NCBI GenBank assembly: GCA_017515985.1
Contig: JAFWDV010000009.1
Span: forward strand, 46,832 to 110,831
DNA: 64,000 nucleotides
From: Clostridia bacterium
GTDB taxonomy: Bacteria > Bacillota > Clostridia > TANB77 > CAG-508
Reading direction: 5' to 3'
The first letter of the stretch is position 1. Each line of letters opens with the position of its first letter. Positions 1,919 to 32,729 of the stretch are shown piece after piece. The notes under the pieces were generated by a model. It saw only the letters and a list, made by a program, of their open reading frames with translations, made no database searches and was not told where the DNA came from. The position numbers and the translations under genes are program-made.

Positions 1919-3148
1919 CTATTTCTTTCTACGTAAAATCCACCCATTTTCGACATTTGTAGGTATTACCATTTTAACACTTTGACCGGCTTTTCCAGGG
2001 TTAACAAATTGAATCTGTTCATCTGTTTCAGTATCCCATAAAGCATCAATTTTAAATACGAATGGCTCTAATTTACCAGGAATTAGAATTTCCATTGTAT
2101 CACCTACAGATAGTTTATTCTTTATTTCAACTATAATCTTTTCAGATGAAGAATCAGTAATCTTACCACCATATTCATAGTTAGGATTATACTGTTTTCC
2201 TTCATATTCTTGAAAATCTTTATTATTTCTGTCATTAAAATAAAATGTTGTTAAACCTCTAGTTTTAACTTTGTCCAATTCATCAAGATATTTTTTATAG
2301 TCATAATGCTCGGGATCCTTCATATAATCATCTAAAGCATTTCTATATGTATTAACTACTGAAGCTAAATAATATTCAGTTTTAAGTCTACCTTCAATCT
2401 TTAAACTGTCGACACCTAGTCCAACTATATCAGGTATCTCCTTTATTAAGCATAAATCTTTTGATGAAAAAATATATGTACCTTTATCATCGTATTCAAC
2501 AGGCATCAAATTACCAGGATTATTGTGCTCTTCTACATACACGTTGTATGCCCATCTGCAACTTTGCGCACAATCACCTAAATTAGCACTTCTTCCAGCC
2601 AAGAAATCACTTAAGAAACATCTTCCAGAATATCCAAAACAAATAGCCCCATGAACAAATATCTCTGTTTCAAGGTCATCTGGTGTAATTCTTATAAGCT
2701 CTCTAATTTGCTCTTTATTTAATTCTCTTGCAAGAATAACACGTTTTGCTCCATTTTTATACCAAAAATTGGCTGTATGGCCACTTACAATATTGGCTTG
2801 TGTACTAATATGTATTTCTACATCCGGAGCCTCTTCTTTAACAACATCTAATACGCCGCCATCTGCTAAAATAATTGCATCAACTTTTAGCTTTTGCAAC
2901 ATTCTTGCTTGTTTCCTTACCTCATCATAACTATCGTCCCACGCATAAATATTTATAGTGGTATATACTTTCTTTCCAATGCTGTGTGCATATTCTATTG
3001 TTTTAGCAAGCAATTCATCATCCATTTCAGCTCTTGTTCTTAAAGATAATGATGATGTTCCTGCATATACAGCATCTGCTCCATATAAAAACGCTGTCTT
3101 TGCTTTCTCAAAAGATCCAACTGGAGCCAATATTTCTGGCTTTTTCAT
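1919..3148 (-). CDS. peptidase U32 family protein (YhbU/RlhA/TrhP-like)
   Basis: 409 aa; N-terminal MKKPEILAPVGSFEKAKTAFLYGADAVYAG and central cysteine-rich region typical of U32 family. Confidence 0.75.
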   Translation of the reverse strand: MKKPEILAPVGSFEKAKTAFLYGADAVYAGTSSLSLRTRAEMDDELLAKTIEYAHSIGKKVYTTINIYAWDDSYDEVRKQARMLQKLKVDAIILADGGVLDVVKEEAPDVEIHISTQANIVSGHTANFWYKNGAKRVILARELNKEQIRELIRITPDDLETEIFVHGAICFGYSGRCFLSDFLAGRSANLGDCAQSCRWAYNVYVEEHNNPGNLMPVEYDDKGTYIFSSKDLCLIKEIPDIVGLGVDSLKIEGRLKTEYYLASVVNTYRNALDDYMKDPEHYDYKKYLDELDKVKTRGLTTFYFNDRNNKDFQEYEGKQYNPNYEYGGKITDSSSEKIIVEIKNKLSVGDTMEILIPGKLEPFVFKIDALWDTETDEQIQFVNPGKAGQSVKMVIPTNVENGWILRRKK

Positions 3149-3296: not shown

Positions 3297-3557
3297 TTAA
3301 TTATTTTTCTGCTTACTGTATTTTAACTTAGTAGCCAACCCCCCTCTAATATGCCTTTCTGCTTTATTTTCATCTAATATAGCCCTTACTTCTCCAGCTA
3401 AGATAGGATTAATCTTTAGCAGTCTTTCTGATACATCTTTATGGACTGTAGACTTGCTAACTCCGTATTTAGCAGCTGTTCCTCTTACAGTATCTTTTGA
3501 ATCTATAATATAATGTGCAAGCTGCGTTGCACGCTCTTCTATTGAAATTCCTCTCAT
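3297..3557 (-). CDS. spoIIID: stage III sporulation transcriptional regulator SpoIIID
   Basis: 86 aa; MRGISIEERATQLAHYIIDSKDTVRGTAAKYGVSKSTVHKDV HTH strongly matches SpoIIID. Confidence 0.85.
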   Translation of the reverse strand: MRGISIEERATQLAHYIIDSKDTVRGTAAKYGVSKSTVHKDVSERLLKINPILAGEVRAILDENKAERHIRGGLATKLKYSKQKNN

Positions 3558-3649: not shown

Positions 3650-5974
3650 CTATTTATTTAATACATCATTCCAGGTTATATTATTACCAGCTCCAATCCT
3701 AGCAGAATATACCAAAATAAGAGCAGCATCTGAGGCGTTTATTGTACCATCTTCATTTACATCCGCATATTTTAATTCATCCGTTAATGGAGGTGTAAAC
3801 TCTGCTTTACTTCCTACTGCTGCTGTATACATTAAAATTAATGTTGCATCTGATGCATTTGCCACACCATCACCATTTACATCACCTTTAACACCTCTGG
3901 TAGTATCAAATTTAACTGATTCTATTTGGTATGTTGTATTACCTTTAGCATCCTTTACTGGTTTCTTTGTTAGTACAGCTCCGTATGAAAATTCTTCCTT
4001 CTTCTCTGCATTTTCGTTTTCTGTTGAATTAAAATTATATTGCTTTACAGCTAAGTAATATTTGTTACATAATGTTGCAAATTCTTTAGTATTTACTAAT
4101 TTTTGGAGCATAGCCACTTTTCCATTTGATTTCATTTCTTGTGCATATTGTGATAATTCATCTGACGTAGCACTTCTTTGCAATGTAGCCTTAAATATAG
4201 CATTTACGCAATCATTATCTGACATGTTTTCTTTACTAATTCTATCTTTAAAGTTATCTCCTTCAACATACATCTTTATGAAATCTCCAGCTTTCTTTTC
4301 CCCTGTTACTAATGAAGTTGTATTGCTTTCTACTGCATTTGCATTTTCACCTAATATTGATTTACTTACATTTTGTGCAAATTTACTAGCTAAATCATTT
4401 GTTGTAGTTATTGCTCTTGGACTATAACTTCCAAGAGATAAACCATATTCCTTAGCTAAAATTTGAAAACTCGTATGTCTTAAAAGCTCTTGAACCAATT
4501 CATTACGTGTTGTTCCACTTGACAAGCGTTCAGTATAACTAGATACAGTTTTCTCATCTAAAGTCTTTCCTATAGTTGTTTTTGCCAAAGTATTTACGAA
4601 TTGTGCATCATCCATAGCTTTATTCTTAAATTCACTTGACTCAAATATTGCAGAAACTACCATAGAAGCATTACTTGTTCCATTTACCAATCTCTCAGAT
4701 ATAGCCTTTAATTCTTCATCTGAAGGATTTCTTTCAAGTGCAGCTTGATATTCTTTCTTAATGAAATTATTTGCTTTCTCTTCTGTTGTATTTTGATTAA
4801 ACTTAGTAGCTGTATATGATCCTTTTTCTAATCCATATTTATCACAAATTGCTTTAAACTCATCATTAGAAAGTACTATTGAAATTATATCAGCATATGA
4901 TAAATTTCTATCTGTAATATCTTTTAGCTCTTCTTCTGATATTTCTCTTGCAAGAGCTCTTTTAAAAGCTGATTTTGCAAACTCAGAAACACTTACTGGA
5001 TTGTACATATATACATTTGTAAGCTCTGAAGCTGCAATATCAGAAGCAGTTTTAGTTTTATTTACTAAATCTTTAACAGCTTGATTATATTGATTTGCCT
5101 CATTTATGTTATAAACTTGATTTACAAATGCTATTGCATTTTGAAGTGCTGATCCATTATCTATAGTTTCTGTAGGTTTATCTCCTGGATTTGAATCAAC
5201 AGGTTGATTACCTGGATCTGGTGTTGGATCTGGTGTTGGGTTTGGTGTTGGATCTGGTGTTGGGTTTTGAGAGTCGTCACTTCCCTTTATCTTAAATTTT
5301 ATTGTTACAGGGTAATATGCCCTAACAAATCCTTCCATACTATAATCTGCAACTCTCGAATAAACTTCCTCTCCTACAAGGGATCTGAAATCCTTACTGG
5401 CAGAATATATATTTTTCCATCTACTATACGTTGTAGTTTTTTTATAATATGTAACAGTAACACACCATTTTGCTAATCCTGTATTGTATGACATTACAGG
5501 ATCAGATTCAGTAGTATAGAATTTTCCTCCAACTGATACTTTCTCACTTCTCATCCATGTATTATAAACACTTGTTGCCTGTTCTTTGCTCTTACATTGC
5601 TGTGTTGTTCTTTCAATACTTGTTTTTTCTGATTTAATTTTATACTTATGTCTATACGTATTCTCATATTTGCTAAATTGTACAGAAACTCGCTCTACAT
5701 TGTTTCTGTTAGCAGTACGTGGTACCGCATTACTAGATATATACTTATCAATATTATTTGTAAATCTCGACCATACCATATCATCTAGTGTTTTTGTTTC
5801 TTTAGCATCGTCAAATTCCAAATTCTTATAGATACTACCCCAATAATAACCATGATTAGTTACCGTATATACTTGATCATCTGCAGCTTTGCTTACATTA
5901 AAAATCGACATTACTTGCAAACACATTATTGCTATCAATAAAATTGAAAAAATCCTTTTAATTAAATTTTTCAT
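3650..5974 (-). CDS. secreted modular protein: signal peptide, unknown N-terminal domain, Pro/Thr linker, four DUF4214-like repeats, C-terminal type-I dockerin
   Basis: 774 aa; signal peptide ending VSKA; PTPDPTPNPTPDPTPDPG linker; four ~75-aa repeats; C-terminal duplicated Ca-binding segments DVNGDGVANASDATLILMY and DVNEDGTINASDAALILVY. Confidence 0.7.
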   Translation of the reverse strand: MKNLIKRIFSILLIAIMCLQVMSIFNVSKAADDQVYTVTNHGYYWGSIYKNLEFDDAKETKTLDDMVWSRFTNNIDKYISSNAVPRTANRNNVERVSVQFSKYENTYRHKYKIKSEKTSIERTTQQCKSKEQATSVYNTWMRSEKVSVGGKFYTTESDPVMSYNTGLAKWCVTVTYYKKTTTYSRWKNIYSASKDFRSLVGEEVYSRVADYSMEGFVRAYYPVTIKFKIKGSDDSQNPTPDPTPNPTPDPTPDPGNQPVDSNPGDKPTETIDNGSALQNAIAFVNQVYNINEANQYNQAVKDLVNKTKTASDIAASELTNVYMYNPVSVSEFAKSAFKRALAREISEEELKDITDRNLSYADIISIVLSNDEFKAICDKYGLEKGSYTATKFNQNTTEEKANNFIKKEYQAALERNPSDEELKAISERLVNGTSNASMVVSAIFESSEFKNKAMDDAQFVNTLAKTTIGKTLDEKTVSSYTERLSSGTTRNELVQELLRHTSFQILAKEYGLSLGSYSPRAITTTNDLASKFAQNVSKSILGENANAVESNTTSLVTGEKKAGDFIKMYVEGDNFKDRISKENMSDNDCVNAIFKATLQRSATSDELSQYAQEMKSNGKVAMLQKLVNTKEFATLCNKYYLAVKQYNFNSTENENAEKKEEFSYGAVLTKKPVKDAKGNTTYQIESVKFDTTRGVKGDVNGDGVANASDATLILMYTAAVGSKAEFTPPLTDELKYADVNEDGTINASDAALILVYSARIGAGNNITWNDVLNK

Positions 5975-6016
5975 TTTTGCCTCCTTTAATTTTTATAATT
6001 TCATATTCTAATAAGG

Positions 6017-6049
6017 AACAAGCAATTTCATAAGCTTGCTCCTTATCAA
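6017..6049 (-). terminator. hairpin between the two dockerin-protein paralogs (possible partial terminator/attenuator)
   Basis: aaggaacaagc-loop-gcttgctcctt (1 mismatch) immediately downstream of stop of 6051..8261, followed by RBS of the next gene. Confidence 0.35.
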
Positions 6050-6050
6050 T

Positions 6051-8261
6051 CTACCTATTCAATACCTCATTCCAATCTGTACTACCTGTTGCACCGTAAT
6101 TAGCTGCATATATTAAGATAAGAGCTGCATCTGATGCATTTATTGCACCATCTCCATTTATATCTGCACAATTTAGCTCTTCTTGGGTTGGTTGAACGAA
6201 GTTAACCCCCATAACTGCTGCATACATTAAAACTAAAGAAGCATCTGATGCATTAACAGCTTCATCACCGTTCACATCTCCCTTAATTCCAGTACTTGTA
6301 TCAAACTTAACTGATTGCACAGTCTCAGTTATTTTTCCTGTTGTATCAGTATTCTTAATCTTTATAATAGTAGCACCACCAGCTTTTGCTTCTAGAGTTT
6401 CGCTCTTTGGAGCATTGCTTGAAGATGGAGAATAACTTCTAACTGGCAAATAATACCTATTACAAACCGAAGCAAATTCATTTAAATTAAGCAATTTCGT
6501 TAAAATAGCGCTCTTATCGTTTTGCTTTATATCATTCAAATATTCAGATAGCTCTTCTGATGTTGGGTCTCTTTGTACAGTTGCCTGGAACAAAGCTTTG
6601 ACATAATCATTATCAGTCATATTTTCTTTTTGAATTCTATCTGCAAAATTTGTGCTCTCTACATATAACTTTACAAAATCACCAGCTGAATACTTTCCAG
6701 AAGTTAAATAACCAGATAATGTTTGTATTACATTTGCATTTTCTCCAAGAATTGATTTACTTACTTTTGTATTAAATTTATCAGCGGCTTCAGTTGTCGG
6801 AACAATATCCTTTGGACTATAACTTCCTGTTGATAATCCATAACTCTCACATAGTGAAACAAATGCACTATGTCTTAATAGCTCTTGTATTAACTCATTA
6901 CGTGTAAATCCTGTTGATAATCTTTCCACATATCCAGATTTTTCTTTATCTGTTAAATCTCTACCTATTGTTGCTCTTGCAAGCACATTAGCAAATTGAG
7001 CATCATCTAGACCTTTATTTTTAAATTCACTTGCTTCAAATATTGATGCAATTACAACTGAAGCAGTTATTTTTCCATTTACTAAATTATCTACAATTAC
7101 ATTTAATTCAGTATCTGAAGGCTCTCTTCCCATTATTATTGAAAATTCGCTCTTTACAAACAGAGCAGCTTTTTCTTGTGTAGTATTTTGATTAAACTTA
7201 ACAGGAGTATATGATCCAACTTCTAATTCATATTTTTTGCAAACTTCTTTAAACTCATCGCTTCCAACAACAGTTGATATTACATCTGAAAATGTAAGTT
7301 TATCTTCTTCTACATTGCTTACTTCTTCATCTGTTGCTTCTCTTCCAAGAGCTCTTTTATAAGCTTGTTTTGTAAATTCAGAAATACTCAATGTGTTATA
7401 CGAATTTAGATTTGTAAGTTCAGAAGCAACTATGTCAGTTGCAGTTTTTGTTTTGTTTACTAAATCTTTTACAGCTTGATTATTTTTGTTTGCCTCTTTA
7501 ATATCAAATACTTGATTTACGAAATCAATCGCATTTTTTAATGCTGTACCATTATCTAACGTTTCCGTTTGCTTTTTATCATTTTGATTATCAACAACTA
7601 CTCCACCTTTATCTTGATTGTTTGAAGGTTCCTGTGATGGTTTGTCTGTTGGATTAGTAGAAGGATTTGATTTTTCTCCTTGCGAAGGTGTCACTGAAGG
7701 ATTTGAATCACTTGTGTATACAGTAAATGAACATTTATAACGAGTTTCAGTAACTTTTAATTTTGGTTTGCTAGATGATGTTGCTATAGAGTTAAAGCTA
7801 CTTGTTGTCCATTCTGAAACTCTATTTGTAGTGTATTTTTTAGGTTTATAATATATTACCTTTACTTCAAAATTACTTGTCCAGACAGCGCTTTTGACTT
7901 TATATCCATTATATTTCCCCTCTTTAGTAATCTTCTCAGCCTTTTCTCTTGCAACTCTCATTTCATCCTTTAACTCTTTCATAGGCGTTCTTGGGATTTT
8001 TTCTTCAACTTCCACATATCCTGTCGTTTCCACTGTATAACTATATCTATATTCCTTCACACACGAATTTATCGTGGCCGAAGTAACATTTAATCCCTTT
8101 TTCTTATACAGACTTACTATCTCACTTGCTGATGGTTTGTTTTGAAATGTTAATGTATCATTTATTTGTGCAGCTTTACTTGTATTAAAAAAAGACAAAC
8201 ATGATAGACATATAATTATAACTAAAAACGTTGCTACAACTCTCTTGTATTTTTTTTTCAT
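6051..8261 (-). CDS. secreted modular protein, paralog of 3650..5974: signal peptide, distinct N-terminal domain, S/T/P-rich linker, four DUF4214-like repeats, C-terminal type-I dockerin
   Basis: 736 aa; same repeat architecture as 3650..5974; C-terminal DVNGDEAVNASDASLVLMY / DINGDGAINASDAALILIY dockerin segments. Confidence 0.7.
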   Translation of the reverse strand: MKKKYKRVVATFLVIIICLSCLSFFNTSKAAQINDTLTFQNKPSASEIVSLYKKKGLNVTSATINSCVKEYRYSYTVETTGYVEVEEKIPRTPMKELKDEMRVAREKAEKITKEGKYNGYKVKSAVWTSNFEVKVIYYKPKKYTTNRVSEWTTSSFNSIATSSSKPKLKVTETRYKCSFTVYTSDSNPSVTPSQGEKSNPSTNPTDKPSQEPSNNQDKGGVVVDNQNDKKQTETLDNGTALKNAIDFVNQVFDIKEANKNNQAVKDLVNKTKTATDIVASELTNLNSYNTLSISEFTKQAYKRALGREATDEEVSNVEEDKLTFSDVISTVVGSDEFKEVCKKYELEVGSYTPVKFNQNTTQEKAALFVKSEFSIIMGREPSDTELNVIVDNLVNGKITASVVIASIFEASEFKNKGLDDAQFANVLARATIGRDLTDKEKSGYVERLSTGFTRNELIQELLRHSAFVSLCESYGLSTGSYSPKDIVPTTEAADKFNTKVSKSILGENANVIQTLSGYLTSGKYSAGDFVKLYVESTNFADRIQKENMTDNDYVKALFQATVQRDPTSEELSEYLNDIKQNDKSAILTKLLNLNEFASVCNRYYLPVRSYSPSSSNAPKSETLEAKAGGATIIKIKNTDTTGKITETVQSVKFDTSTGIKGDVNGDEAVNASDASLVLMYAAVMGVNFVQPTQEELNCADINGDGAINASDAALILIYAANYGATGSTDWNEVLNR

Positions 8262-8273
8262 ATTATCACCTCA

Positions 8274-9464
8274 CTAGTATGGTAATGTGAATTCACTAGC
8301 TTTCCAATCATCCCCTGATTTTTTCAAAACAAAACTTTGTTTTAAAGTGTTTGTCTTATTTTCAGCATAGTTACTATACACACTTGATACTTCTGCTTTT
8401 ATCTCATTATCTGAAAATTCTAAAGCTTTTATTGAACTGTTAACATATGATACATCTTTATCTCTACCGATGTTTTCAAGTTTCATATATTGGCTACCAT
8501 TTTTCTCTATAATTCCACAAACTTTTAAGAAGTCACTTTTAAACTCATTAGTTACTGCTTTTTCAACAGACTCACTATAATTTTCTATTTTTGCATAATT
8601 GCTACCATCAAATTCATATATTTTGAAGCCATCTCCGTCTTTTTCAAAGTCTAAATAACTTCCATCAGCAATATTTAGCAATGTTTCATATCTATATTTT
8701 GCTATTATTGATGCTTCATTTTCATCCATTGTAGTTTTTGTACTTATTACAACTTCTTCTTTCACAATTTTATAGCAAGCTATACCTGCAGCAACAGTCA
8801 TTAATAAAAGTATTATTACAATTATTGATTTTTTAGCTCCACTAGTTTTCTTGCTAAAAGCCACTTTTATCATAATAATAAATAACAACAAAGCAGCAGC
8901 TCCAAGTACAATTGCTAAAATTAATGATTTGTTAAATTTACTTGCATTTCCTTTTTTTACCTTAACTTCACCACTTGTTACTGTGTACTTAACTGATGCA
9001 GTTTGAACAGTTGCCAAACTTGTAGCTTCGTCAATAATTAGTACAAAGCTTTTATCATTTTCAACTTCTTCAGGCATTTTAAATTTTATAGAGAACAAAT
9101 CGATGTCTCCATTAACACCTTTAGAACCACTAAAACTTACAGTAACTTTTCCATCATCTTGATTTTGAGCACCTTCAATTGTAAATTTATCGTTTTTATC
9201 CTCTAAACCTACAAATTCAAGACCACCACAATCTATAACTATAGTTCCACTACATAAAGATTCAATGTTTTCGATTTTTACAGGAACCTTTACTTCTTTA
9301 TTATCTTTTATATCCTCTATTTCAACTGTACCAATTGATAAATTAGCAACTTTTTCTTCGCTATCTGTTGTCGTAAGCTCATCAGCATACGATACAATAC
9401 TATACATAAACGTCATTACAACTATTGACAATATTGTTAATAAAACTTTTAATTTACTCTTCAT
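8274..9464 (-). CDS. cohesin-domain protein anchored by a two-helix membrane hairpin, with C-terminal extracytoplasmic domain
   Basis: 396 aa; signal peptide; residues ~40-170 (VKVPVKIENIESLCSGTIVIDCGGLEFVGLED ... DIDLFSIKFKMPEE) fit the cohesin beta-sandwich pattern; two hydrophobic helices separated by SKKTSGAKKS. Confidence 0.55.
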   Translation of the reverse strand: MKSKLKVLLTILSIVVMTFMYSIVSYADELTTTDSEEKVANLSIGTVEIEDIKDNKEVKVPVKIENIESLCSGTIVIDCGGLEFVGLEDKNDKFTIEGAQNQDDGKVTVSFSGSKGVNGDIDLFSIKFKMPEEVENDKSFVLIIDEATSLATVQTASVKYTVTSGEVKVKKGNASKFNKSLILAIVLGAAALLLFIIMIKVAFSKKTSGAKKSIIVIILLLMTVAAGIACYKIVKEEVVISTKTTMDENEASIIAKYRYETLLNIADGSYLDFEKDGDGFKIYEFDGSNYAKIENYSESVEKAVTNEFKSDFLKVCGIIEKNGSQYMKLENIGRDKDVSYVNSSIKALEFSDNEIKAEVSSVYSNYAENKTNTLKQSFVLKKSGDDWKASEFTLPY

Positions 9465-9500
9465 ATCAAAACCTCTTTCGTATTTTATTTTAAATAAAAT

Positions 9501-9965
9501 TTACACCTCATTTAACACTTCATCCCATGTTACTTCACCAGTGGTAGATGCTCCCATTTTTGCAGCATAAATTAAAACTAAAGCTGCATCTGATGCATTG
9601 ATTACACCGTCTTTATTTATATCAGCTACATTAAGCATTTGCTGAGTTGGCGCTTCAAAACGAACTCCCATATTAGCTGCATATATCAATATTCTAGCTG
9701 CATCTGATGCATTTACAGTACCGCTACCATCAACATCACCTAGCATGCCTGTGGCTGTATTAATTTGACTACTTTGGTTTCCAGTAGTTGTATTATTATT
9801 TACGGTATTATTTACAGTATTATTCGAACCTACGCTATTTCCGTTTGTATTAACTTCATTTTGTCCATTCGTTGCTGAAGCAAAATTTGTAATACTAGCT
9901 AGGAAAACAACTATGAAAAATAAAATAAGTATATCTAAAACTAGTTTTCTCCTCAAAAAAAACAC
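9501..9965 (-). CDS. small secreted or membrane-tethered dockerin-only protein
   Basis: 154 aa; N-terminal hydrophobic segment ending FASA; N/T-rich linker; complete dockerin (GDVDGSGTVNASDAARILIY ... DINKDGVINASDAALVLIY) and nothing else. Confidence 0.6.
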   Translation of the reverse strand: MFFLRRKLVLDILILFFIVVFLASITNFASATNGQNEVNTNGNSVGSNNTVNNTVNNNTTTGNQSSQINTATGMLGDVDGSGTVNASDAARILIYAANMGVRFEAPTQQMLNVADINKDGVINASDAALVLIYAAKMGASTTGEVTWDEVLNEV

Positions 9966-9979
9966 CTCCCATCATTTTA

Positions 9980-10777
9980 TTAATGCTCTATTTTTTTAGC
10001 TCTCATGTATACACATACACCAAGACCTATAAACGCAACTATTGAAATAACAACGTTAAATCCATCTCCTGTAGCTGGTAATCCTGATTTTTTACTACTT
10101 TTACTTCCGCTTCCAGATTCTCCATCAACGCTGTATTCATCATCTGATGAGTAATCTGAATCCGAACCATTTCCGCTACCAGATCCTTGGCTGCTTCCAC
10201 CATTTCCATTTATTTCTTCATCAATTATATCAATTACAGATTTATCATTGCTTGAACTTCCACCACCTTGGTTGTTTACATCTGTTCTTGTAACAGCAAC
10301 TGAATCAACCTCAAAATATCCATTACTGTTATAATCCTGCCATTTAATTAGATAATTTCCACCAATTAATCCGGTAACTTTAAATTTTACTTTAATAATT
10401 ATATATTCTCCTGGATCAAACTGGCTATCCTGTGCAATACTATATCCTATTGCTTTCAAATCATCTCTAGCAACTACTTGTCCTTTATTACTATCTTCAT
10501 CTTTGTAAAATATCATACAGTCCTTTGTGCTACCCACTTCAACAAAAGTCAAGTTTGAATCATACGAAATTCTCCCCTGAGTTCCATATATTTTCCCATT
10601 TACTCTTATTCTTAAAGTAAGTTCAACTATATCGTTTGTAGCTACATCCGTTTTGTCTATCTCCATATAATATTCATTGTTGTTTGCATCAGTATATGCA
10701 CAGCTTTTATTTGGTATAGAAAACACTGTAAAAACAACAATCAATAGTAGTATGGATAACATTTTCTTTACTTTCAT
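9980..10777 (-). CDS. sortase-anchored (LPATG) cell-wall protein with a single cohesin-like domain
   Basis: 265 aa; signal peptide; cohesin-like core (GTQGRISYDSNLTFVEVGS ... YIIIKVKFKVTG); G/S-rich linker; LPATG + hydrophobic stretch + RAKKIEH sorting signal; strong RBS AAGGAGGTG. Confidence 0.6.
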   Translation of the reverse strand: MKVKKMLSILLLIVVFTVFSIPNKSCAYTDANNNEYYMEIDKTDVATNDIVELTLRIRVNGKIYGTQGRISYDSNLTFVEVGSTKDCMIFYKDEDSNKGQVVARDDLKAIGYSIAQDSQFDPGEYIIIKVKFKVTGLIGGNYLIKWQDYNSNGYFEVDSVAVTRTDVNNQGGGSSSNDKSVIDIIDEEINGNGGSSQGSGSGNGSDSDYSSDDEYSVDGESGSGSKSSKKSGLPATGDGFNVVISIVAFIGLGVCVYMRAKKIEH

Positions 10778-10853
10778 GAAAAATTACACCTCCTTATGCA
10801 ATTTTATATTTTGTTCAACGTAATTTCAATATCTGAAGTACAAATCATAAAAA

Positions 10854-10931: not shown

Positions 10932-10957
10932 ACTGTTTGAATCATCTTTCAAACAGT
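10932..10957. terminator. bidirectional rho-independent terminator
   Basis: perfect 10-bp stem actgtttgaa / ttcaaacagt flanked by A-tract and T10-tract; just downstream of 10981..11991. Confidence 0.6.
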
Positions 10958-10980: not shown

Positions 10981-11991
10981 TTACCAAGTTACTGCAATAT
11001 CTAAACTTCCACCTGGACAGAAATCAACTACATATCCCATTCCAAGTGTTGTAGGAACATAGCTCTTATATGGATATTTACTTAAGTTTGGAGATGCAAC
11101 CATAACATAACCATTATATGTTTTAACTCCATCGCTTCTAACTCCATATCCATCACTTGAAAGACCTAAAAGTCTTAAACATCCACCCATATATAAGTTG
11201 TAATATGTTTCTCTGTATCCTGATGGTGATTCTGATGCCTTTACAACTCCGGCACTTCTTGTAAGTTTTTTACCAGACCATGTATAACCATCTGGATTTT
11301 CTGTTTGTGCAGGCGTATTGTCGTCATCATTAACAGAATCGCTGCTTCTTGAAGTAACTACTGGTTGAACTCTTTTTGTTCTGATTTCTTTAATACAATT
11401 TACAGGCTCTTCTATAACTTTCTCTGCTATTTGTGTTTTTTCTTCTTCATTACCTTCAACTAATTTGATTTTGTAATAAATTTCTTTCTTACCATCTTTA
11501 CCTTTTTGTGTTATAGTTTCAACTTTTTCGCCATCGCCAGTTGATAAATCTTTAACTTCAGTTTCATGTGGTATAGTAACTTCTTCTTTAGCAATTTTTT
11601 CAGATACTGTGTTATATTCAGCTAACACGTCTTCTATATTTTCATTTTGATTCATACTTTGTACATTTGCTTCTTCACCGTTGCTTTTAAATATTCTGAT
11701 TGTTTTATTGTCTGATATTTCATCGTCATATTTAGGTACAACTGTTTCGTCAGATAATAATACAATATGATTTTCATCTAATATTTCTGAAACTTTGCTT
11801 TTTGATGTTATAATATCTAGCTCCATTCCATCTGCATAAATTATTTTTACTTTGTTTAGTTTAGCTCCAGTGGCCATAACACTTATTCCCATAATGAATA
11901 GTAGTGCTATAGTCATCACAATCACCTTTTTCAGCGATATTGTAGCTTTTTCATTTATTCCCATAAAAAAATCCTTTCTGTTTTTCAACAT
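10981..11991 (-). CDS. YabE-like cell-wall protein (DUF348 - G5 - 3D domain architecture)
   Basis: 336 aa; N-terminal TM; DUF348-like KVKIIYADGMELDIITSKSKVSEIL; G5-like EEVTIPHETEV...; C-terminal GYVVDFCPGGSLDIAVTW resembles 3D domain motif. Confidence 0.55.
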   Translation of the reverse strand: MLKNRKDFFMGINEKATISLKKVIVMTIALLFIMGISVMATGAKLNKVKIIYADGMELDIITSKSKVSEILDENHIVLLSDETVVPKYDDEISDNKTIRIFKSNGEEANVQSMNQNENIEDVLAEYNTVSEKIAKEEVTIPHETEVKDLSTGDGEKVETITQKGKDGKKEIYYKIKLVEGNEEEKTQIAEKVIEEPVNCIKEIRTKRVQPVVTSRSSDSVNDDDNTPAQTENPDGYTWSGKKLTRSAGVVKASESPSGYRETYYNLYMGGCLRLLGLSSDGYGVRSDGVKTYNGYVMVASPNLSKYPYKSYVPTTLGMGYVVDFCPGGSLDIAVTW

Positions 11992-12966: not shown

Positions 12967-15108
12967 TTAACATCCTTGAGATTTTATTGTGCTATCTATT
13001 TGATTCAAATTATTTATAAATCTCTTAACTGCCTTTGTTGTTTTTATATTACCAATTATAGGTATCACACCAGTATTTTGAAGCTTTAATGAATTTGCTC
13101 TGTTAATTTGTATAACGCGTTTTAATTCATTATTCTTTTCTTGCACCATATTTATTTGTGCTTTACTAAATAGCTTCCTCTTTTCTTTACCTAAAACAAG
13201 TTGTGGTAAATTGCGTTGTTGCTCAATTTTCTCTTTTGTTTTTTTACTTAGCTTTAATTGATCAGTCATACCTTTTATCTGGCTATTTGATTCAAGATTT
13301 CTTAAATACATTTTTACATCTGTTAAGCAACTTTCATCATCTTCTGTTTTAATATATGCGTACATATCTGAAAGTCCATCTTCAATCGTATAATATGAAT
13401 TGCTAGAAAACTGAGACTCAGTTAGTATTAATTGCTCTTTAAGATTAATATTATCAAGCTTGGCTTGTTTTAATTTTGCTTTTCCTATCAATTTACTGAA
13501 AAAAGAGCACTTTTCACTTTCTATTTCTTTTCTCTGTTTATCTAATTTTTTCAATTTAGCATCTGTAATCATTTTCTGAGCATTTTTATTAAAACAAACA
13601 GTATAGATGCTCTTCATTTCCTCGCCATACTCCATTGTAACACTTTTATCATCTGATATTCTTTTTAAATCCTTTAGCAATTCATTTGTATAATTCAAAT
13701 TGTCTATTGCATCAGCACTTTCAACTTTTTTTCTTAGAACAAAAGAGCCCTGTTTTATTGAATTAATATTTGAATTAATAGCATCATCATTAATTCTATC
13801 TATGTTAAGCTCAACATTAGTTCTATTCGATAAATCGATAATATTTGATTCTTCCGTTTTTAACTTATAATATGTCATTTCAATATTATCTGCTATATTT
13901 TTAATCTGAGAGTCAGCTAATTCTTTTGCCTTCTTTATTATTTCGTTTACATCTTCTTCAGCATCTGCCTTATTAGCTTGAACTTTTACTACTTTTTGAG
14001 TACTCGCACTTTGCACTGGTTCCCTAACCGAAGTCTTTTTCTTGCTTTCTTTAATCGGAACCACCTTTGAAACAGATTCATATTGAACTTGTTTTTTAAT
14101 GGTATTTGCTTCCTTTGCGCTAGCCTTTTTCTCAGTTTTATTTGCTTCCAATTCCTTTTGCTTAACTAATTTTATCATTTTTTTCAATATTACATCATAT
14201 GTAACATTTTCTAAATCAATCTTATCCGTGATTTTATCTTCTATACCATATTGACAAATCTTTTTGTAGTATTTAATAAACATTTCATAATTAGGAAATA
14301 TTTTTCCCATTACCAAAAATAAATCAACAGATTCTTCATTTTCTTTATAGCTTAACCCAATTTTTGCCATATTATCCAGTCTTTTCTTTAAACTGTCTTC
14401 ATTTTTATATTCCTTTGGTAAATAGCTATTCTTAATAAAGTTCTCAAGCTCTTTCTTAGAGGTAATTTCAATTTTTTTATCTTCATATTTTAAGATATAA
14501 TTGCTCTCATTATCATTATCAACCTTTTTCATTTTTAATTTAGAGCCATATATCTCAAAAAGCATATTTACGAGGTAAATTATATCTGTATCTTTTGGTA
14601 ATGATCTAACGACAGCCGAATAAGTATACTGTTTATTAATCATAAGCTTTTCTTCTTTTGAATCAGCTCTGGACATTTCTAATAAATATTTTATCATCAC
14701 AAGAGCCAATCTAGCTATACCATCTTTTACAAAAAACTTACCATTATCCTCTAATAACTCGATATTTCCACTATTTTCAGTTTTATTAACCTTTTTTAAG
14801 TCTTTGATATAATAATTTGGATTTTTAAAATATAATCTAACTATCTCATCAGTTTTTTCGCTATCTGAGAATATTTCAATCCATGTTTTATTATCTAGCT
14901 TTAAGTCAATTGTTCCATAAAGATTTTTTAGTCTAAAATACTTTTCTTTTGGAATTGTTAAATCTGGATTATTCAAAAATTTTAAATTTTCTCTAGGTAT
15001 TTTTGTTTGTATGCTATTAGATTTTATCTGCAACTCTGCAGGTAAATTCTCCACATTTAAACCAATACTATTAAAAAAACTTTTTTTCTGTAAAGATATT
15101 TTTTGCAT
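12967..15108 (-). CDS. large Lys-rich coiled-coil protein, possible N-terminal ParB/Srx-like motif; partner of DnaB-like gene
   Basis: 713 aa; ELLEDNGKFFVKDGIARLALV resembles the ParB/Srx DGxxR core; long coiled-coil-like K/E-rich central region; 13-nt gap to upstream gene. Confidence 0.45.
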   Translation of the reverse strand: MQKISLQKKSFFNSIGLNVENLPAELQIKSNSIQTKIPRENLKFLNNPDLTIPKEKYFRLKNLYGTIDLKLDNKTWIEIFSDSEKTDEIVRLYFKNPNYYIKDLKKVNKTENSGNIELLEDNGKFFVKDGIARLALVMIKYLLEMSRADSKEEKLMINKQYTYSAVVRSLPKDTDIIYLVNMLFEIYGSKLKMKKVDNDNESNYILKYEDKKIEITSKKELENFIKNSYLPKEYKNEDSLKKRLDNMAKIGLSYKENEESVDLFLVMGKIFPNYEMFIKYYKKICQYGIEDKITDKIDLENVTYDVILKKMIKLVKQKELEANKTEKKASAKEANTIKKQVQYESVSKVVPIKESKKKTSVREPVQSASTQKVVKVQANKADAEEDVNEIIKKAKELADSQIKNIADNIEMTYYKLKTEESNIIDLSNRTNVELNIDRINDDAINSNINSIKQGSFVLRKKVESADAIDNLNYTNELLKDLKRISDDKSVTMEYGEEMKSIYTVCFNKNAQKMITDAKLKKLDKQRKEIESEKCSFFSKLIGKAKLKQAKLDNINLKEQLILTESQFSSNSYYTIEDGLSDMYAYIKTEDDESCLTDVKMYLRNLESNSQIKGMTDQLKLSKKTKEKIEQQRNLPQLVLGKEKRKLFSKAQINMVQEKNNELKRVIQINRANSLKLQNTGVIPIIGNIKTTKAVKRFINNLNQIDSTIKSQGC

Positions 15109-15121
15109 AAATTCTACGACC

Positions 15122-16663
15122 TCATTTCAACTTTTGTTTCATTCTTAAGTACCCAAGCTCAAACCATTCATTATATGCTAGATTTAATCTAAACAACAAT
15201 CTAGGCTTAGCTCCTGCCCTATTCTTATCAACTACACATGCGTAGTATCTTACATCAGGATCTTCATAAACTTTAATATCCTTATATTGTTTTGCTTCCT
15301 CTATTTCAGAATATTCATAATCTTTAAAAGAATCATTCGTTATTTGCTTAAATAAACATAGCGTGTCCAAAACTTCCTTTACTGTCCTGCTAGCAGACAT
15401 ATCGTTTATCGTAAGATTCAGTGGTGTTGTTGTATTTTCTAGAAGTTGTATCGTTGAACCAATAAATATTTTGTACTTTTGTGCAAGATTAGAAAGTATG
15501 GTTGCTGTTTTCTTTATTTCATCGCCATCACCAATATGATTTATATCATTTTTTAGCGTATCATAAAAAACATATTCTACGCCTTCCTTGTAATAGTAGT
15601 TAATTATTATCTTGTTCAAATCATCGTTGGTATGATCTGCAATATGCATAAAGCAAATTGGATTATTCTTCTGATTTTCAAGCCATTCAGTAGCTTTTAC
15701 TACATTGTTAAAATCTGAAGAATACTTTGCAAGTCTTTTAACAAATTGTTCATGCGTTTCATTTTCTAACTTTAGTATATATCCCTTATCATCAACTTTA
15801 ACGGCTTTTTTATTATCAGGTCTATACTTAAACTCAAGGAGCTCTCCTTCTGAAACTCTAATTTTACAACCTATCTTTTTCTGTATTACAGGATTATTGA
15901 TTATAGTTGTTATCAAACAAAGCTTCATCTTATCTTCAGACATTTCATTTGAAATTATAAGAACTTTTTTATTTTGTACAAATGCCATATGAGCAGCCAT
16001 GTTGATTGTAAATCTACTTTTACCACTATTTGATGGCATTGAAAAAGACATAGTTTCGCCAAGCCTAATACCTTTAAAAACATCTGTTAATATCTTAAAT
16101 GGCAAATCAATTCCGCTTGTTAATGTATTATCTGCTGCTAATAGGAAATCTGTAACATTTGAGTTTAATCTTCCTTCACTAATTCCCCTTTTAACACCAA
16201 CTTCAGAAACTATATTTTCAAGCTCATCAATAGTCATTTCCTTGTATCTTTTGTATGACTTTATTTTCAAAATCTCATCTTGAACTTTCTTAGTTGGAGC
16301 ATTTAAATAGTATTTTTTTAGCAAGAATAACTTTTTTATTTTTACAAATATTGTTTCAATGTTATATTTATTTTCTATTGCTTCCTTCTTAAGTTTTTCC
16401 TTAAATCTATATATTTCATCAGATGTTTTGGGATACGTAAATGCTCTTTTTATTTTTTCTGGTGCAAAAGTTCCACCCTCAGTAAATAAAATACTTTTGT
16501 AAGCATTCAATGCCATCTCATCTGAAAATTGACTATCTTCATATGATAAATAATATTTAGCAATTGATTTTGGACTTTCTAGCAAAAGACCAATATACGC
16601 GTACTCTAATTTAACATTTTTAAGCTCAATTGGATATTTTTCTTCTACTTTTTTTGTACCCAA
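15122..16663 (-). CDS. DnaB-like helicase family protein with atypical Walker A
   Basis: 513 aa; N-terminal DnaB-N-like region (EYAYIGLLLESPKSIAKYY); C-terminal RecA-like core GETMSFSMPSNSGKSRFTINMAAHMA...VLIISNEMS aligns to DnaB H1/Walker A but with Met in place of the first Gly/Ala; EYVFYDTLK as candidate Walker B. Confidence 0.6.
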   Translation of the reverse strand: MGTKKVEEKYPIELKNVKLEYAYIGLLLESPKSIAKYYLSYEDSQFSDEMALNAYKSILFTEGGTFAPEKIKRAFTYPKTSDEIYRFKEKLKKEAIENKYNIETIFVKIKKLFLLKKYYLNAPTKKVQDEILKIKSYKRYKEMTIDELENIVSEVGVKRGISEGRLNSNVTDFLLAADNTLTSGIDLPFKILTDVFKGIRLGETMSFSMPSNSGKSRFTINMAAHMAFVQNKKVLIISNEMSEDKMKLCLITTIINNPVIQKKIGCKIRVSEGELLEFKYRPDNKKAVKVDDKGYILKLENETHEQFVKRLAKYSSDFNNVVKATEWLENQKNNPICFMHIADHTNDDLNKIIINYYYKEGVEYVFYDTLKNDINHIGDGDEIKKTATILSNLAQKYKIFIGSTIQLLENTTTPLNLTINDMSASRTVKEVLDTLCLFKQITNDSFKDYEYSEIEEAKQYKDIKVYEDPDVRYYACVVDKNRAGAKPRLLFRLNLAYNEWFELGYLRMKQKLK

Positions 16664-22338: not shown

Positions 22339-23604
22339 ATGGCAAACGAAGACGTAGAAAACACAAAGCAAATAAATAAGAAAAAAGTAATATTATTTGC
22401 ACTAATCCTACTACTATTAATATTTTTAGTATCAAGGCTATTTTCAAAGTCAGTAAAAATTGCACTTGAAGGCTCTGATACGATGGATGTTGAATATGGT
22501 ACAACTTTTTCAGACCCTTCAGTGAAAGCTACATATGGGAAAAAGGATATATCTGATACAGTAGAAGTATCTGGAAACGTTGATACATCAAAGGTAGGAA
22601 CTTATACGTTAACATATACAGCAAAACATAAGAAAAAAACACAATCTGTCACAAGAACTATAAATGTAACAGATTCAGTTCCGCCAGAAATAAAATTAAA
22701 CGGCGACGAAGAGATAAATATTGCTCAAGGTTCAAAATATCAAGAGCTAGGGTGTATAGCAACTGATAAGTACGATGGAGATATTACTACAAAAATTAGT
22801 ATTGAAAATCCCGTTAAAACATCAGAAAAAGGCTCTTACACAGTAAAATATACAGTAAAAGATTCATCAGGAAATACTGCAACAGCACAAAGAAAAGTTA
22901 ATGTTGTTGAGTCTGGATCAAAAAATATTTCAACAGCAAAGGCTGCAGGACTACCTGTACTTATGTACCATTTCTTTTATGATAAAACAACTGGTGATAC
23001 AGGAAAAGATGGAAATTGCATGGAAATACATGATTTCGAGGATCAGCTAAAATATTTAACAGAAAACAAATATTATTTCCCAACTTGGGAAGAAGTTGAA
23101 AACTATGTGAAAGGAACTTCATGCCTACCAGAGCACAGCGTAGTAATAACTGTAGACGACGGAAATGAGACATTTTTTGACTTGGCTGTTCCTGTAATTA
23201 ATAAATATGATGTTAAAGTTACATCATTTGTTGTTACTTCATGGATTGAGAATAAAGAATATTTAAATAAATTTGATAGGAACAAAATTATTTTTCAGTC
23301 ACATTCAAACGATATGCATAAATCAGGTTCAAATGGAAAAGGTACATTCTTAACAATGTCTGAGGAAGATGCTTTAGCAGATTTAAAAGCATCTAAAGAA
23401 TTCATTGGAAATGCAACAGTATTTTGTTATCCATTCGGAGATCAAAATGAAAACTGTCAAAAAACATTAGAAAAAGCCGGTTACAATATGGCATTTACAA
23501 CGGCATATGGTAGAGTTAGACCAGGTGATAATCCATACGCACTTAGCAGAATTAGAATGACAAAAGGAGATTCTTTGACATCATTTACAAAAAGAGTTAG
23601 TTAA
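22339..23604 (+). CDS. membrane-anchored polysaccharide (peptidoglycan) deacetylase with two Ig-like domains
   Basis: 421 aa; N-terminal TM; Ig-like repeats (TYTLTYTAKH..., SYTVKYTVKDSSGNTA...); NodB-homology region PVLMYHFF ... VVITVDDGNETFFD ... QSHSNDMH. Confidence 0.7.
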   Translation: MANEDVENTKQINKKKVILFALILLLLIFLVSRLFSKSVKIALEGSDTMDVEYGTTFSDPSVKATYGKKDISDTVEVSGNVDTSKVGTYTLTYTAKHKKKTQSVTRTINVTDSVPPEIKLNGDEEINIAQGSKYQELGCIATDKYDGDITTKISIENPVKTSEKGSYTVKYTVKDSSGNTATAQRKVNVVESGSKNISTAKAAGLPVLMYHFFYDKTTGDTGKDGNCMEIHDFEDQLKYLTENKYYFPTWEEVENYVKGTSCLPEHSVVITVDDGNETFFDLAVPVINKYDVKVTSFVVTSWIENKEYLNKFDRNKIIFQSHSNDMHKSGSNGKGTFLTMSEEDALADLKASKEFIGNATVFCYPFGDQNENCQKTLEKAGYNMAFTTAYGRVRPGDNPYALSRIRMTKGDSLTSFTKRVS

Positions 23605-27412: not shown

Positions 27413-27856
27413 TTATTCATCACATGAATTGCATGTTTTGTCAATAATACATGATATTAAACATATTAAAGCTGTAATCATCATTACAAAGAAAAATGCA
27501 GCTAATGCTACAAATATTGTCGCCGGTATTGTAAACACAGTAACTCCAATTATCGCTGATATCGTCGTTGATAAAAATGTTCCTATAGAGCCAGCTAATA
27601 ATAGTTTTGCATATTTACAAGCACATTTATAAAAAGCATTATTACCTTTTACAACATTGGCCGTAAATAGTGAAAATATCAGTATTCCAATTGTAACTAC
27701 AGAAAATACCAATGCAATCGTTATAAAGTTTAAAGCAATCGGTATAAACCCAAAAGCAAATAAAATTCCAACAGCTACACCTGCAACTAAACTCAAAATC
27801 ACGCCAATAAATTCACACGCCGTTAAATTACTTTTTTTACATCCACAATTTTCCAT
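27413..27856 (-). CDS. polytopic membrane protein with Cys-rich termini
   Basis: 147 aa; four hydrophobic helices; CGCKK / CNSCDE ends. Confidence 0.4.
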   Translation of the reverse strand: MENCGCKKSNLTACEFIGVILSLVAGVAVGILFAFGFIPIALNFITIALVFSVVTIGILIFSLFTANVVKGNNAFYKCACKYAKLLLAGSIGTFLSTTISAIIGVTVFTIPATIFVALAAFFFVMMITALICLISCIIDKTCNSCDE

Positions 27857-27876
27857 ATAAATCCTCCTTTATCCAG

Positions 27877-27907
27877 TATATAAATGACTAAAATCGTCAT
27901 TTATATA
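27877..27907. promoter_or_regulatory. perfect 12-bp inverted repeat TATATAAATGAC-n7-GTCATTTATATA (candidate operator)
   Basis: lies 20-50 nt upstream of start of 27413..27856, between it and the macro-domain gene. Confidence 0.3.
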
Positions 27908-28013
27908 TTATACTTTTAAATTAATATAAAGGTTACTACAGAAAAAATTATATATAGAAAAGAAGCCGGATATGGATATGCCACCCATTACCGACTTCAT
28001 TTCTTTCAGCGTG

Positions 28014-28418
28014 TTAGAGGTAGAGAACTATCTCTTTTTGGGAAGCTTCCATACCTTCCTTAATCTGGTCAAAATCTGCTCCACTGAGCACACCTATAAG
28101 ACCTGTACCAATTGCAATGGAAGCTACCGGTTCTTCTCCAGGAATAGAATCAAAGCATTTCTTGATAACCGCTGCCTGATTGACCCATCCCTTTCCAATA
28201 AGAGAATGGCAGCAAAGTGCAAAGAATTCAACCTCGCCAACCTTCTTGGAAAGAACTGTGCACAGCTCGGTTTTGCCGATGTGTGCAAGCTCCGGCCAGT
28301 ATTCGCTGGAAACTAGACCCGCAAAACCACAATCGTTTGCACCTTCTGTGTTCACAGCAAAGGCTATCCGCTTCTCCTTTCCCTGAAGAATATTGCCTGA
28401 CTTTTTAGCGATAATCAT
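28014..28418 (-). CDS. small macro-domain (ADP-ribose binding/processing) protein in a GC-rich islet
   Basis: 134 aa; IAFAVNTEGANDCGFAG (NAAN-GG box), FFALCCHSLIGKG, SIAIGTGLIGVLSGAD (SIAFPAISTG-like); about 48% GC vs about 27% flanks. Confidence 0.55.
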   Translation of the reverse strand: MIIAKKSGNILQGKEKRIAFAVNTEGANDCGFAGLVSSEYWPELAHIGKTELCTVLSKKVGEVEFFALCCHSLIGKGWVNQAAVIKKCFDSIPGEEPVASIAIGTGLIGVLSGADFDQIKEGMEASQKEIVLYL

Positions 28419-28522
28419 AGCATAACCTCCCTACTGAAATATTTTACGGTATATCGCTATGAGAACCATTTTACCATAAACTCTGTCAATTCGCAACTTA
28501 TTTTAAATCAAACGAAAAAAAG

Positions 28523-28548
28523 ACTCCAAAGAGCCTTTTTCATTTTTT
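28523..28548 (-). terminator. terminator downstream of lipoprotein gene
   Basis: minus-strand AGGCUC-uuug-GAGUCU (one G.U) followed by U7. Confidence 0.4.
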
Positions 28549-28560
28549 TATTTAGATAAT

Positions 28561-29271
28561 TTATTTTAACGCAAATGTTTGAACCATTGCATCCATTATA
28601 TGACCTAGACCCTCTAAATATTCAGTGGTATCTAAACAAGATGTAGTAATCATATAAGTAGAATCTTTTCCAGTATTTACATAGTATGTAGTTTCATATT
28701 GACCTTCAGCTCTTCTTGTAGTATATACAGCTTCATAGCCATTTACCGTTGTCTTTTTGTAGTTTGATATGCTAGATATTTTTTTGCTATATGAAACATT
28801 TTCTTTTTCAACTACAACGCAATCTATACCAACGCTGGTTTCAAACCAATCCTTATCATCATGGTGTGAAGCTTTAAAATTATCCGTAGCGTATCTAATA
28901 GTATACCCTAAAGAGCTAGAATACTCCTTAGATGGTACATTTTCTGACATTCCTTCTCTGTTTACAGTTAATTCTTTACTTGTTGTAGCCTTTTTATTTT
29001 CTGATGAACTACTGCTTGCATTATTATTAGTTGTATTATTTGCCGTAGTATTGCTACCACTTGTTTCATTTTTTGTTGTGTTTTTCGTTGTATTTTCTGT
29101 TTGTTTTGTAGTGTTTTCACTCACATTTTGAACCTGATTCTGTGTGGCATTTTCTGCTGTTTTTGTATTATCTTTTTTGCTCTCACATCCTGTTAAAACA
29201 AGCATTGCAATAACTAAGATTCCTCCTACCTTAAATACTTTTTTGTTTCTCAAAAATTCTTTAATTTTCAT
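28561..29271 (-). CDS. lipoprotein with T/N-rich linker
   Basis: start at MKIKEF; lipobox LTGC. Confidence 0.5.
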   Translation of the reverse strand: MKIKEFLRNKKVFKVGGILVIAMLVLTGCESKKDNTKTAENATQNQVQNVSENTTKQTENTTKNTTKNETSGSNTTANNTTNNNASSSSSENKKATTSKELTVNREGMSENVPSKEYSSSLGYTIRYATDNFKASHHDDKDWFETSVGIDCVVVEKENVSYSKKISSISNYKKTTVNGYEAVYTTRRAEGQYETTYYVNTGKDSTYMITTSCLDTTEYLEGLGHIMDAMVQTFALK

Positions 29272-29314
29272 ATATATCTCCATTACTTTACATTTCTATA
29301 TTAGTTTTAAATTC

Positions 29315-29764: not shown

Positions 29765-29784
29765 ACTCTACCTCTTTTGTATAA

Positions 29785-32655: not shown

Positions 32656-32729
<74 letters not shown>

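Follow-up and report, generated by a model that had tools for sequence, protein, structure and literature searches.

A five-gene operon that encodes two cohesins, three dockerins and no carbohydrate-active enzyme (CAZyme) was found in a 64,000-nucleotide (nt) stretch of DNA from an uncultured gut Clostridia bacterium (assembly GCA_017515985.1, contig JAFWDV010000009.1, positions 46,832 to 110,831 of the forward strand), referred to below as the window. Its five consecutive co-oriented open reading frames (ORFs), g1 to g5, occupy positions 3650-10777 on the minus strand. On balance, we favour the view that the operon is a cell-envelope docking system that descended from a wall-remodelling or lytic module checked by an inhibitor. 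The cohesin-dockerin part of this view is solid; its functional part depends on a modelled fold similarity and on gene context. An earlier note, made from the letters of the same stretch, had described five minus-strand genes at this place as a non-cellulosomal cohesin-dockerin set with one sortase-type and one membrane anchor, and this description holds. The note had counted two anchors and two cargo proteins; there is a third dockerin protein, g2, so that three dockerins face two cohesins.

The features of the operon are collected in Table 1. All five ORFs are intact and each is preceded by a good ribosome-binding site (RBS). From g1 to g5 the intergenic gaps measure 23, 36, 12 and 76 nt (the first is 14 nt if the GTG at 9965 is taken as the g2 start), and not 10-35 nt as had been noted earlier. 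The start of g2 is probably the TTG at 9956, which has the RBS GGGAGG ahead of it and gives a protein of 151 amino acids (aa); the mechanically assigned GTG start falls within the RBS GGGAGGTG, and gene callers likewise chose 151 aa. Since the upstream G5 gene ends in a terminator and a promoter-like site in front of g1 (TTGAAA-17-TAAAAT, then the RBS AAGGAGG) follows it, the cluster appears to be its own transcription unit. The unusually long g4-g5 spacer contains a hairpin, AAGGAGCAAGC...GCTTGTTCCTT, with an 11-bp stem and without a strong T-run, which may serve transcription attenuation, mRNA stabilisation or differing levels of the two paralogues. The upstream DUF348/G5-domain gene itself (10981-11991, minus strand) forms a separate transcription unit, with a strong promoter match (12/12) at 12023-11996 and the terminator listed in Table 1; its product may be a YabE/RpfB-like, wall-associated protein.

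The five-gene operon is present on 12 contigs from independent samples, one of them labelled a METAG scaffold, with 99.98-100% identity where aligned. An assembly artefact, in the operon as a whole or in the g3 fusion described below, is ruled out by these identical copies. The G+C content is ~30% throughout the window. The proteins are MBR2744223-MBR2744227 at NCBI, where both cohesin proteins, g1 and g3, are annotated as "hypothetical"; the label of g2 is "dockerin type I repeat-containing" and that of g4 and g5 "DUF4214 domain-containing". A Pfam scan of the five proteins revealed no glycoside hydrolase (GH), carbohydrate esterase, polysaccharide lyase or carbohydrate-binding module (CBM), in agreement with the earlier note, which had seen no GH or CBM. 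Hidden Markov models (HMMs) of the families of the locus matched nothing further in the 64 kb. A cellulosome was considered and rejected: each anchor bears a single cohesin, and a multi-cohesin scaffoldin, CAZymes and CBMs are all lacking.

Table 1. Positions in the window of the operon, its parts and other features considered with it (TM, transmembrane helix).
Feature	Position (nt)	Strand	Residues (aa)	Remarks or basis
Terminator hairpin and T-run ending the upstream G5 gene	10932-10957			sequence
Promoter-like site 5' of g1	10801-10829	-		consensus match only
g1	9980-10777	-	265 aa	signal peptide; cohesin; 65-aa Gly/Ser/Asp linker; LPATG; hydrophobic tail; RAKKIEH
g1 cohesin	10283-10681		~33-165	
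g1 LPATG sortase signal	10067-10081	-	233-237	
g2	ORF 9501-9965; probable gene 9501-9956	-	151 aa	signal peptide; Asn-rich linker; dockerin; TWDEVLN tail; nothing else
g2 dockerin	9576-9743			
g3	8274-9464	-	396 aa	signal peptide; cohesin; TM1; loop; TM2; IseA-like domain
g3 cohesin	8949-9347		40-172	
g3 TM1	8859-8927		180-202	
g3 TM2	8766-8828		213-233	
g3 IseA-like domain, ~150 residues	8277-8735	-	244-396	AlphaFold and Foldseek
g4	6051-8261	-	736 aa	signal peptide; N-terminal domain; Ser/Thr/Pro linker; four DUF4214 units; dockerin
g4 N-terminal domain	7704-8171		31-186	
g4 DUF4214 array	6432-7385		293-610	
g4 dockerin and tail	6054-6284			
Hairpin in the g4-g5 spacer	6013-6044	-		read from sequence
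g5	3650-5974	-	774 aa	signal peptide; diverged N-terminal domain; Pro/Thr linker; four DUF4214 units; dockerin
g5 N-terminal domain	5279-5884		31-232	
g5 DUF4214 array	4037-4987		330-646	
g5 dockerin and tail	3653-3889			
Bact_surface_Ig-like, Big_3 and polysaccharide deacetylase (PF01522) protein without dockerin	22339-23604	+		domains

Neither g1 nor g3 matched the Pfam Cohesin family PF00963 (gathering cutoff, 24.1 bits), even at an E-value of 0.1; NCBIfam gave no match either, and BLASTP did not align the two proteins with each other. The cohesins were therefore tested indirectly, and the HMM scan that the earlier note had proposed for cohesin, dockerin and DUF4214 detected the latter two directly and cohesin only via homologues. 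A word-based homologue search with g3 returned g3 only, and a full HMMER search found only 18 proteins among 1.8 billion representatives. Residues 1-205 of g3 match about 10 of these, which are ~200-240 aa long and consist of a signal peptide, a cohesin and a C-terminal transmembrane helix. Three relatives of the g3 cohesin, P0017, P0023 and a double-cohesin-dockerin protein, P0022, lie above the PF00963 cutoff, and in the Protein Data Bank (PDB) the profile of the family matched only cohesins. The two domains of g3 were modelled separately with AlphaFold. The cohesin model (residues 27-175; alignment of 11 sequences without P0022) is all-beta, with a predicted local distance difference test (pLDDT) score of 88, and its first 47 Foldseek matches in the PDB are all solved cohesins, with template modelling (TM) scores of 0.7-0.8. 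The best match is 2xdh, the non-cellulosomal cohesin of A. fulgidus (E 2e-8, TM score 0.74-0.80). Superposing in this way on solved cohesins, the modelled g3 domain is a cohesin.

For g1, four full-length homologues with 37-39% identity were found, all with LPxTG signals, and two of them, P0003 and P0005 (38-39% identity over the full length), match PF00963 at 30.7 and 35.3 bits. The g1 family profile matched only cohesins in the PDB, with 5g5d at 2e-4, and hhalign joined the g1 family to the g3 cohesin family (96.8%, E 2.8e-10). By homology and by this profile link, the g1 domain is also a cohesin. The earlier note had named segments that do not fold as the nine-stranded cohesin sandwich as a refutation; its reading of both as cohesins withstands this, for g3 by the model and for g1 through its PF00963-positive homologues, and divergent cohesins are seen once more to escape Pfam. 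The C-terminus of g1 reads LPATG-DGFNVVISIVAFIGLGVCVYM-RAKKIEH; the LPATG of this sortase-type signal, which had been noticed before, is followed by a hydrophobic stretch and a basic tail; the motif is kept as LPQTG or LPHTG in homologues, and Pfam Gram_pos_anchor scores 13.4 bits, under its cutoff of 20. Among the ORFs scanned, which covered part of the window, none was recognised as a sortase gene. A second sortase-type signal in the window, with a motif unlike the LPATG of g1, belongs to a 402-aa secreted protein (31309-32517, minus strand) that has no Pfam match at 1e-4 and whose C-terminus consists of LAKTGE followed by a hydrophobic stretch and KIKNK.

The membrane hairpin of g3 consists of two helices joined by the basic 10-aa loop SKKTSGAKKS. 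Downstream of the first helix, residues 211-396 match by HMMER a second family, proteins of ~185 aa with an N-terminal transmembrane helix. Because the two halves of g3 match two families that are separate genes in related loci, g3 is a fusion of two proteins. The loop parallels the KKK tails of the cohesin-transmembrane proteins and the MKK heads of the second family, and it follows from this correspondence that both soluble domains of g3 should be extracellular. The earlier note was thus right about the cohesin and the hairpin of g3 and missed the extracellular domain of ~150 aa behind them.

This C-terminal domain has no Pfam or NCBIfam match. Its model (residues 244-396) reached a pLDDT of 92, and the only PDB entries that Foldseek matched below 1e-3 were those of IseA: 2rsx (1.8e-7), 8wt4 (with CwlO, 2.4e-7) and 8i2e (with LytE, 1.7e-6). 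The TM scores were 0.58-0.62 over ~156 columns in this match by one method and one library, and the next entries were generic NTF2/SnoaL folds at 4e-3. As modelled, the domain has the IseA fold, which makes g3 the first cohesin-inhibitor-fold fusion found in this analysis. IseA of Bacillus inhibits NlpC/P60 DL-endopeptidases of peptidoglycan; other members of the fold are Tai3, a type VI secretion system immunity protein against Tae3, and IpdA, an inhibitor of a polysaccharide deacetylase, and it has been proposed that the fold readily evolves to inhibit enzymes of extracytoplasmic glycopolymers (PMC12700454). In B. anthracis the enzyme under the control of IpdA is a deacetylase of the kind listed in Table 1, and the protein listed there is therefore a conceivable target of the IseA-like domain of g3.

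The three dockerins were recognized directly. Dockerin_1 (PF00404; gathering cutoff, 22.9 bits) matched g2 at 44.6 bits (1.7e-11), g4 at 46.4 bits (5e-12) and g5 at 45.1 bits (1e-11), and the C-terminal duplicated-EF-hand dockerins that had been noted on the 774- and 736-aa paralogues are confirmed. The three are near-identical and internally symmetric; each contains two Ca-loop/helix segments of the pattern D-x-N-x-D-G-x-x-N-A-S-D-A-x-x-I/V-L-x-Y-A/T/S-A and ends in a common tail, TW(N/D)(E/D)VLN. A motif scan of the 64 kb turned up no dockerin besides these three. By sequence comparison, g2 is the counterpart of proteins of related loci that consist of a signal peptide, a dockerin and a Peptidase_C39_2 domain, without the peptidase part: it is 34% identical to the protein of locus L006 over the signal peptide and dockerin and ends at the point where the peptidase part would set in.

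The large proteins g4 and g5 are paralogues with 43% identity overall, which falls to 20% in the N-terminal domain and rises to 58% in the DUF4214 region and 59% in the dockerin. Pfam matched DUF4214 (PF13946; gathering cutoff, 23.2 bits) in three stretches of each, at 72.9 bits (5e-21) in g4 and 75.0 bits (2e-20) in g5. With a self-built repeat HMM, four units per protein were found (E 1e-15 to 1e-19 for those of g5), the number given in the earlier note; their length is 50-63 aa and not ~75 aa. Six members of the N-terminal domain family, searched against Pfam at an E-value of 10, had no family in common. The same note had regarded the repeats as cargo, which is doubtful, since in published work DUF4214 is treated as probably surface-anchoring or glycan-binding. 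In segmented filamentous bacteria (SFB), secreted proteins are marked by four C-terminal DUF4214 regions, considered likely to anchor them at the surface (PMC3371716, PMC12780176), and the RTX-DUF4214 protein Psh of P. putida binds lipopolysaccharide O-antigen (bioRxiv 10.64898/2026.09.02.748959). By analogy, the array probably serves to hold or space the proteins and is not itself cargo. No paper that mentions DUF4214 together with dockerin was found in the literature searched.

Related loci were found on short metagenome contigs from other uncultured bacteria. Scans of 185,579 GTDB species genomes with patterns from the paralogue alignment and the g1 family returned no relative, and a scan of JGI metagenomes returned only an unrelated DUF4214 protein (L019); by the patterns used, the gene set is very rare in sequence databases. 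The order LPXTG-cohesin, transmembrane IseA-like protein, large DUF4214-dockerin protein is found in L006, L007, L011 and L012, and a dockerin-Peptidase_C39_2 protein with a signal peptide followed by a cohesin-transmembrane protein in L006, L014 and L015. The large proteins all share the unclassified N-terminal domain, as a tandem double copy in L012 and L014, and those that are complete enough also have four DUF4214 units and a dockerin. In L006 and L014 they run 400-580 aa past the dockerin, whereas g4 and g5 end a few residues after it. Unrelated genes adjoin the related clusters (AhpC and PGM; acetate kinase; nucleoside deoxyribosyltransferase). The L006 cluster lies between a fragment of a reverse transcriptase (RVT_1) and the gene of a Y1 transposase (2592-3044 and 13707-13972 of that locus).

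The additional parts of the relatives are of enzyme type. The dockerin of the large L014 protein is followed by ~440 aa without a known match and then by Peptidase_C39_2 at 44.9 bits (cutoff, 24 bits); a PDB sequence search with its C-terminal 577 aa gave no match. An intact 330-aa dockerin protein of the same locus (4786-5778) carries Peptidase_C39_2 at 30.7 bits. The large L006 protein scores just under the cutoffs for Lipase_GDSL_2 (30.7 bits) and Glucosaminidase (GH73-like, 27 bits); its GDSL region matches SGNH hydrolases in the PDB at E ~2e-4, and an SH3b-like stretch may be read in it by eye. The dockerin-Peptidase_C39_2 proteins read DGCGITT in L006 (9346-10101) and DGAGITT in L014, and, if that Cys is the nucleophile, the 330-aa protein of L014 may be a pseudo-peptidase; in the large L014 protein a Cys is present in shifted position, DGDAPTCIA. 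The cohesin-transmembrane gene of L006 (10422-11126) contains a single in-frame stop at 10809-10811. Since relatives carry peptidase and weaker SGNH- and GH73-like domains on dockerin proteins, the comparison points to cell-wall biology. The operon of the window is an enzyme-less version of a module that has wall-hydrolase-type domains elsewhere, whether by loss here or by gain there.

The docking system that we propose would work as follows. After Sec export, the dockerin proteins would plug into the two cohesins in a Ca-dependent manner, and each of the three may bind one or both. g1 would be attached to the wall by a sortase, with its cohesin held out on the flexible 65-residue linker and presenting proteins further out; g3 would sit in the membrane and carry its cohesin next to its IseA-like domain, each on a short tether. 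The four DUF4214 units would lie along a glycopolymer of the cell surface or wall, holding or orienting the proteins, and the variable N-terminal domain of g4 and g5 would be the working end. Close to the membrane, the IseA-like domain would keep a wall-active partner inactive ("dock and inhibit"). Since the operon of the window has no recognisable catalytic domain, the activity would consist of binding, of a hidden N-terminal enzyme or of an enzyme encoded elsewhere. In a bolder version, which we think rather unlikely, the locus would be a "murosome", a cohesin-dockerin complex for peptidoglycan in which cutters are caught by the membrane cohesin beside the inhibitor and then passed, active, to the wall cohesin. 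If true, this would allow autolysins, or a contact-dependent lysis of neighbours, to be switched on and off by position, and the N-terminal domain would be a new wall-binding or wall-cutting module, the target of the inhibitor in the enzyme-less version of the window.

Several points weigh against a docking system checked by an inhibitor. The likeness of the g3 domain to IseA is at the level of fold only (TM score ~0.6, 12-13% identity), and a profile of six members of its family finds no IseA chain in the PDB, only NTF2-related ones at E 0.075. As Pfam recognises no catalytic domain in g2, g4 or g5, the inhibitor is without an evident target in the operon. The family of N-terminal domains has no relatives in the PDB-sequence profile search or the word-based database search, and its alignment, a poor one, has no invariant Cys, His, Asp or Glu. 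In addition, pairing of cohesins and dockerins within the operon is predicted from sequence, the role of the DUF4214 arrays is taken from the literature, and the catalytic competence of the C39-like domains of relatives is uncertain.

The properties of the N-terminal domains would suit an adhesin display, in which the heads of g4 and g5 bind host, food-particle or microbial ligands, DUF4214 and dockerin fix them, and the IseA-like domain is a leftover or has some other role. The heads are only 20% identical between paralogues that share 58-59% elsewhere, they are tandemly duplicated in L012 and L014, conserved residues of catalytic type are lacking, and fixing to the cell has been proposed for the DUF4214 surface proteins of SFB (PMC3371716, PMC12780176). 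We nevertheless consider this unlikely: no known adhesin fold or repeat was matched by Pfam, and such a display leaves unexplained both the IseA-like protein beside the large protein in every related locus and the peptidase, esterase and glucosaminidase-like modules of relatives. An interbacterial weapon, with lytic dockerin effectors displayed on the surface and the membrane-tethered IseA-like protein providing immunity as Tai3 does against Tae3, would account for the inhibitor gene beside a multi-domain protein of lytic type in L006 and L014, an arrangement that resembles effector-immunity pairs, and a member of the IseA family does serve as an immunity protein (PMC12700454). It is improbable, however, given that the proteins of the window have no recognised lytic domain and the cluster no secretion or delivery system, and that IseA of B. 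subtilis controls the cell's own autolysins, so that the pairing fits housekeeping.

The operon might also be a decaying remnant, a stripped relic without function, with g2 as a peptidase protein cut short and with the C-terminal enzymes of g4 and g5 lost. In favour of this, g2 ends directly behind its dockerin, at the point from which its counterparts in L014 and L006 extend into Peptidase_C39_2, a few residues follow the dockerins of g4 and g5 as compared with 400-580 more in L006 and L014, and the cohesin-transmembrane gene of L006 has an in-frame stop. Against this stand five intact ORFs with good RBSs, the high-confidence folds of the g3 domains, a duplicated large protein whose paralogues are 58-59% identical in the anchoring part, and the recurrence of the identical operon on 12 contigs, which come from different samples; we regard a relic as very improbable. 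The least probable alternative, for which we see hardly any room, is a minimal system that displays DUF4214 cargo and is active at a stage of sporulation. It goes back to the earlier note, where the downstream spoIIID was taken as a hint. The gene is real (3297-3557; Pfam 6e-37, NCBIfam above cutoff), and the IseA-fold protein IpdA is required for engulfment in B. anthracis (PMC12700454). However, none of the related clusters, which adjoin unrelated genes, is near spoIIID, and spoIIID has its own 92-nt upstream intergenic region with a hairpin and RBS; because of this the link to sporulation is unsupported. A further point, though a weak one, is the sigma-70-like promoter match of the cluster.

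Cohesin-dockerin pairs are widespread outside cellulolytic bacteria, and almost none has an assigned role. The compact locus, with five genes, two sockets and three plugs, whose relatives connect the pairing with enzymes of peptidoglycan type and an inhibitor of the IseA family, makes a hypothesis on non-cellulosomal cohesins testable with a few recombinant domains, and DUF4214, a common domain of unknown function, is placed in a defined envelope-associated gene context.

Two other regions of the window, both on the minus strand, were noted in passing. Seven consecutive ORFs at 27413-33744 (147, 134, 240, 149, 459, 402 and 302 aa) match no Pfam family at E 1e-4, and several look membrane- or lipoprotein-like. 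At 12967-16663, two large genes lie between a lipoprotein-like gene and a signal peptidase gene; the 713-aa product of one has no Pfam match, and the 513-aa product of the other matches only DnaB_C, at 23.8 bits (cutoff, 27).

An operon that brings together cohesins, dockerins, DUF4214 arrays and an IseA-like domain was not found in the literature searched, and known systems resemble the locus in part. Pairing of cohesin and dockerin outside cellulose degradation, as proposed here, is represented by the cohesin-like module 2jh2 of C. perfringens, for which the earlier note cites toxin/glycosidase complexes, and by the amylosome of R. bromii, whose dockerin-bearing cargo consists of amylases. 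The A. fulgidus cohesin 2xdh, the best match of the g3 cohesin in both sequence and structure, is likewise non-cellulosomal. None of these three systems pairs its cohesins with an IseA-like domain or DUF4214 arrays. The modelled domain of g3 would share its fold and extracytoplasmic location with IseA (YoeB), Tai3 and IpdA, and the genes of its relatives adjoin papain-fold or other domains of wall-enzyme type; IseA of B. subtilis is soluble and secreted, whereas the g3 domain is tethered by a transmembrane helix, fused to a cohesin and without detectable sequence similarity to it. The DUF4214 proteins of SFB and Psh of P. putida combine, like g4 and g5, a variable N-terminal part with an array of some four helical DUF4214 units close to the C-terminal end; no dockerin has been reported for them, while the arrays of g4 and g5 precede a dockerin and the operon encodes cohesins.

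R. flavefaciens, from a rumen or gut habitat as here, has the sortase-anchored ScaE, a single cohesin fixed to the wall via LPXTG as is predicted for g1, and the autonomous ScaG, and the structures of both (2zf9 and 4n2o) are among the Foldseek matches of the g3 cohesin. Its dockerins also occur on non-CAZyme proteins, including papain-fold modules; RflaF_05439, with two NlpC/P60-like modules and an X-dockerin, is a precedent for a dockerin on such a module (PMC3573020). The cohesins of R. flavefaciens are of type III, whereas the best structural matches of the g3 cohesin are type-I-like and non-cellulosomal. Unlike the R. flavefaciens system, the locus is a self-contained five-gene operon without a multi-cohesin scaffoldin, CBM or CAZyme, its second cohesin has a membrane anchor and is joined to a domain of inhibitor fold, and its dockerin proteins carry DUF4214 arrays.

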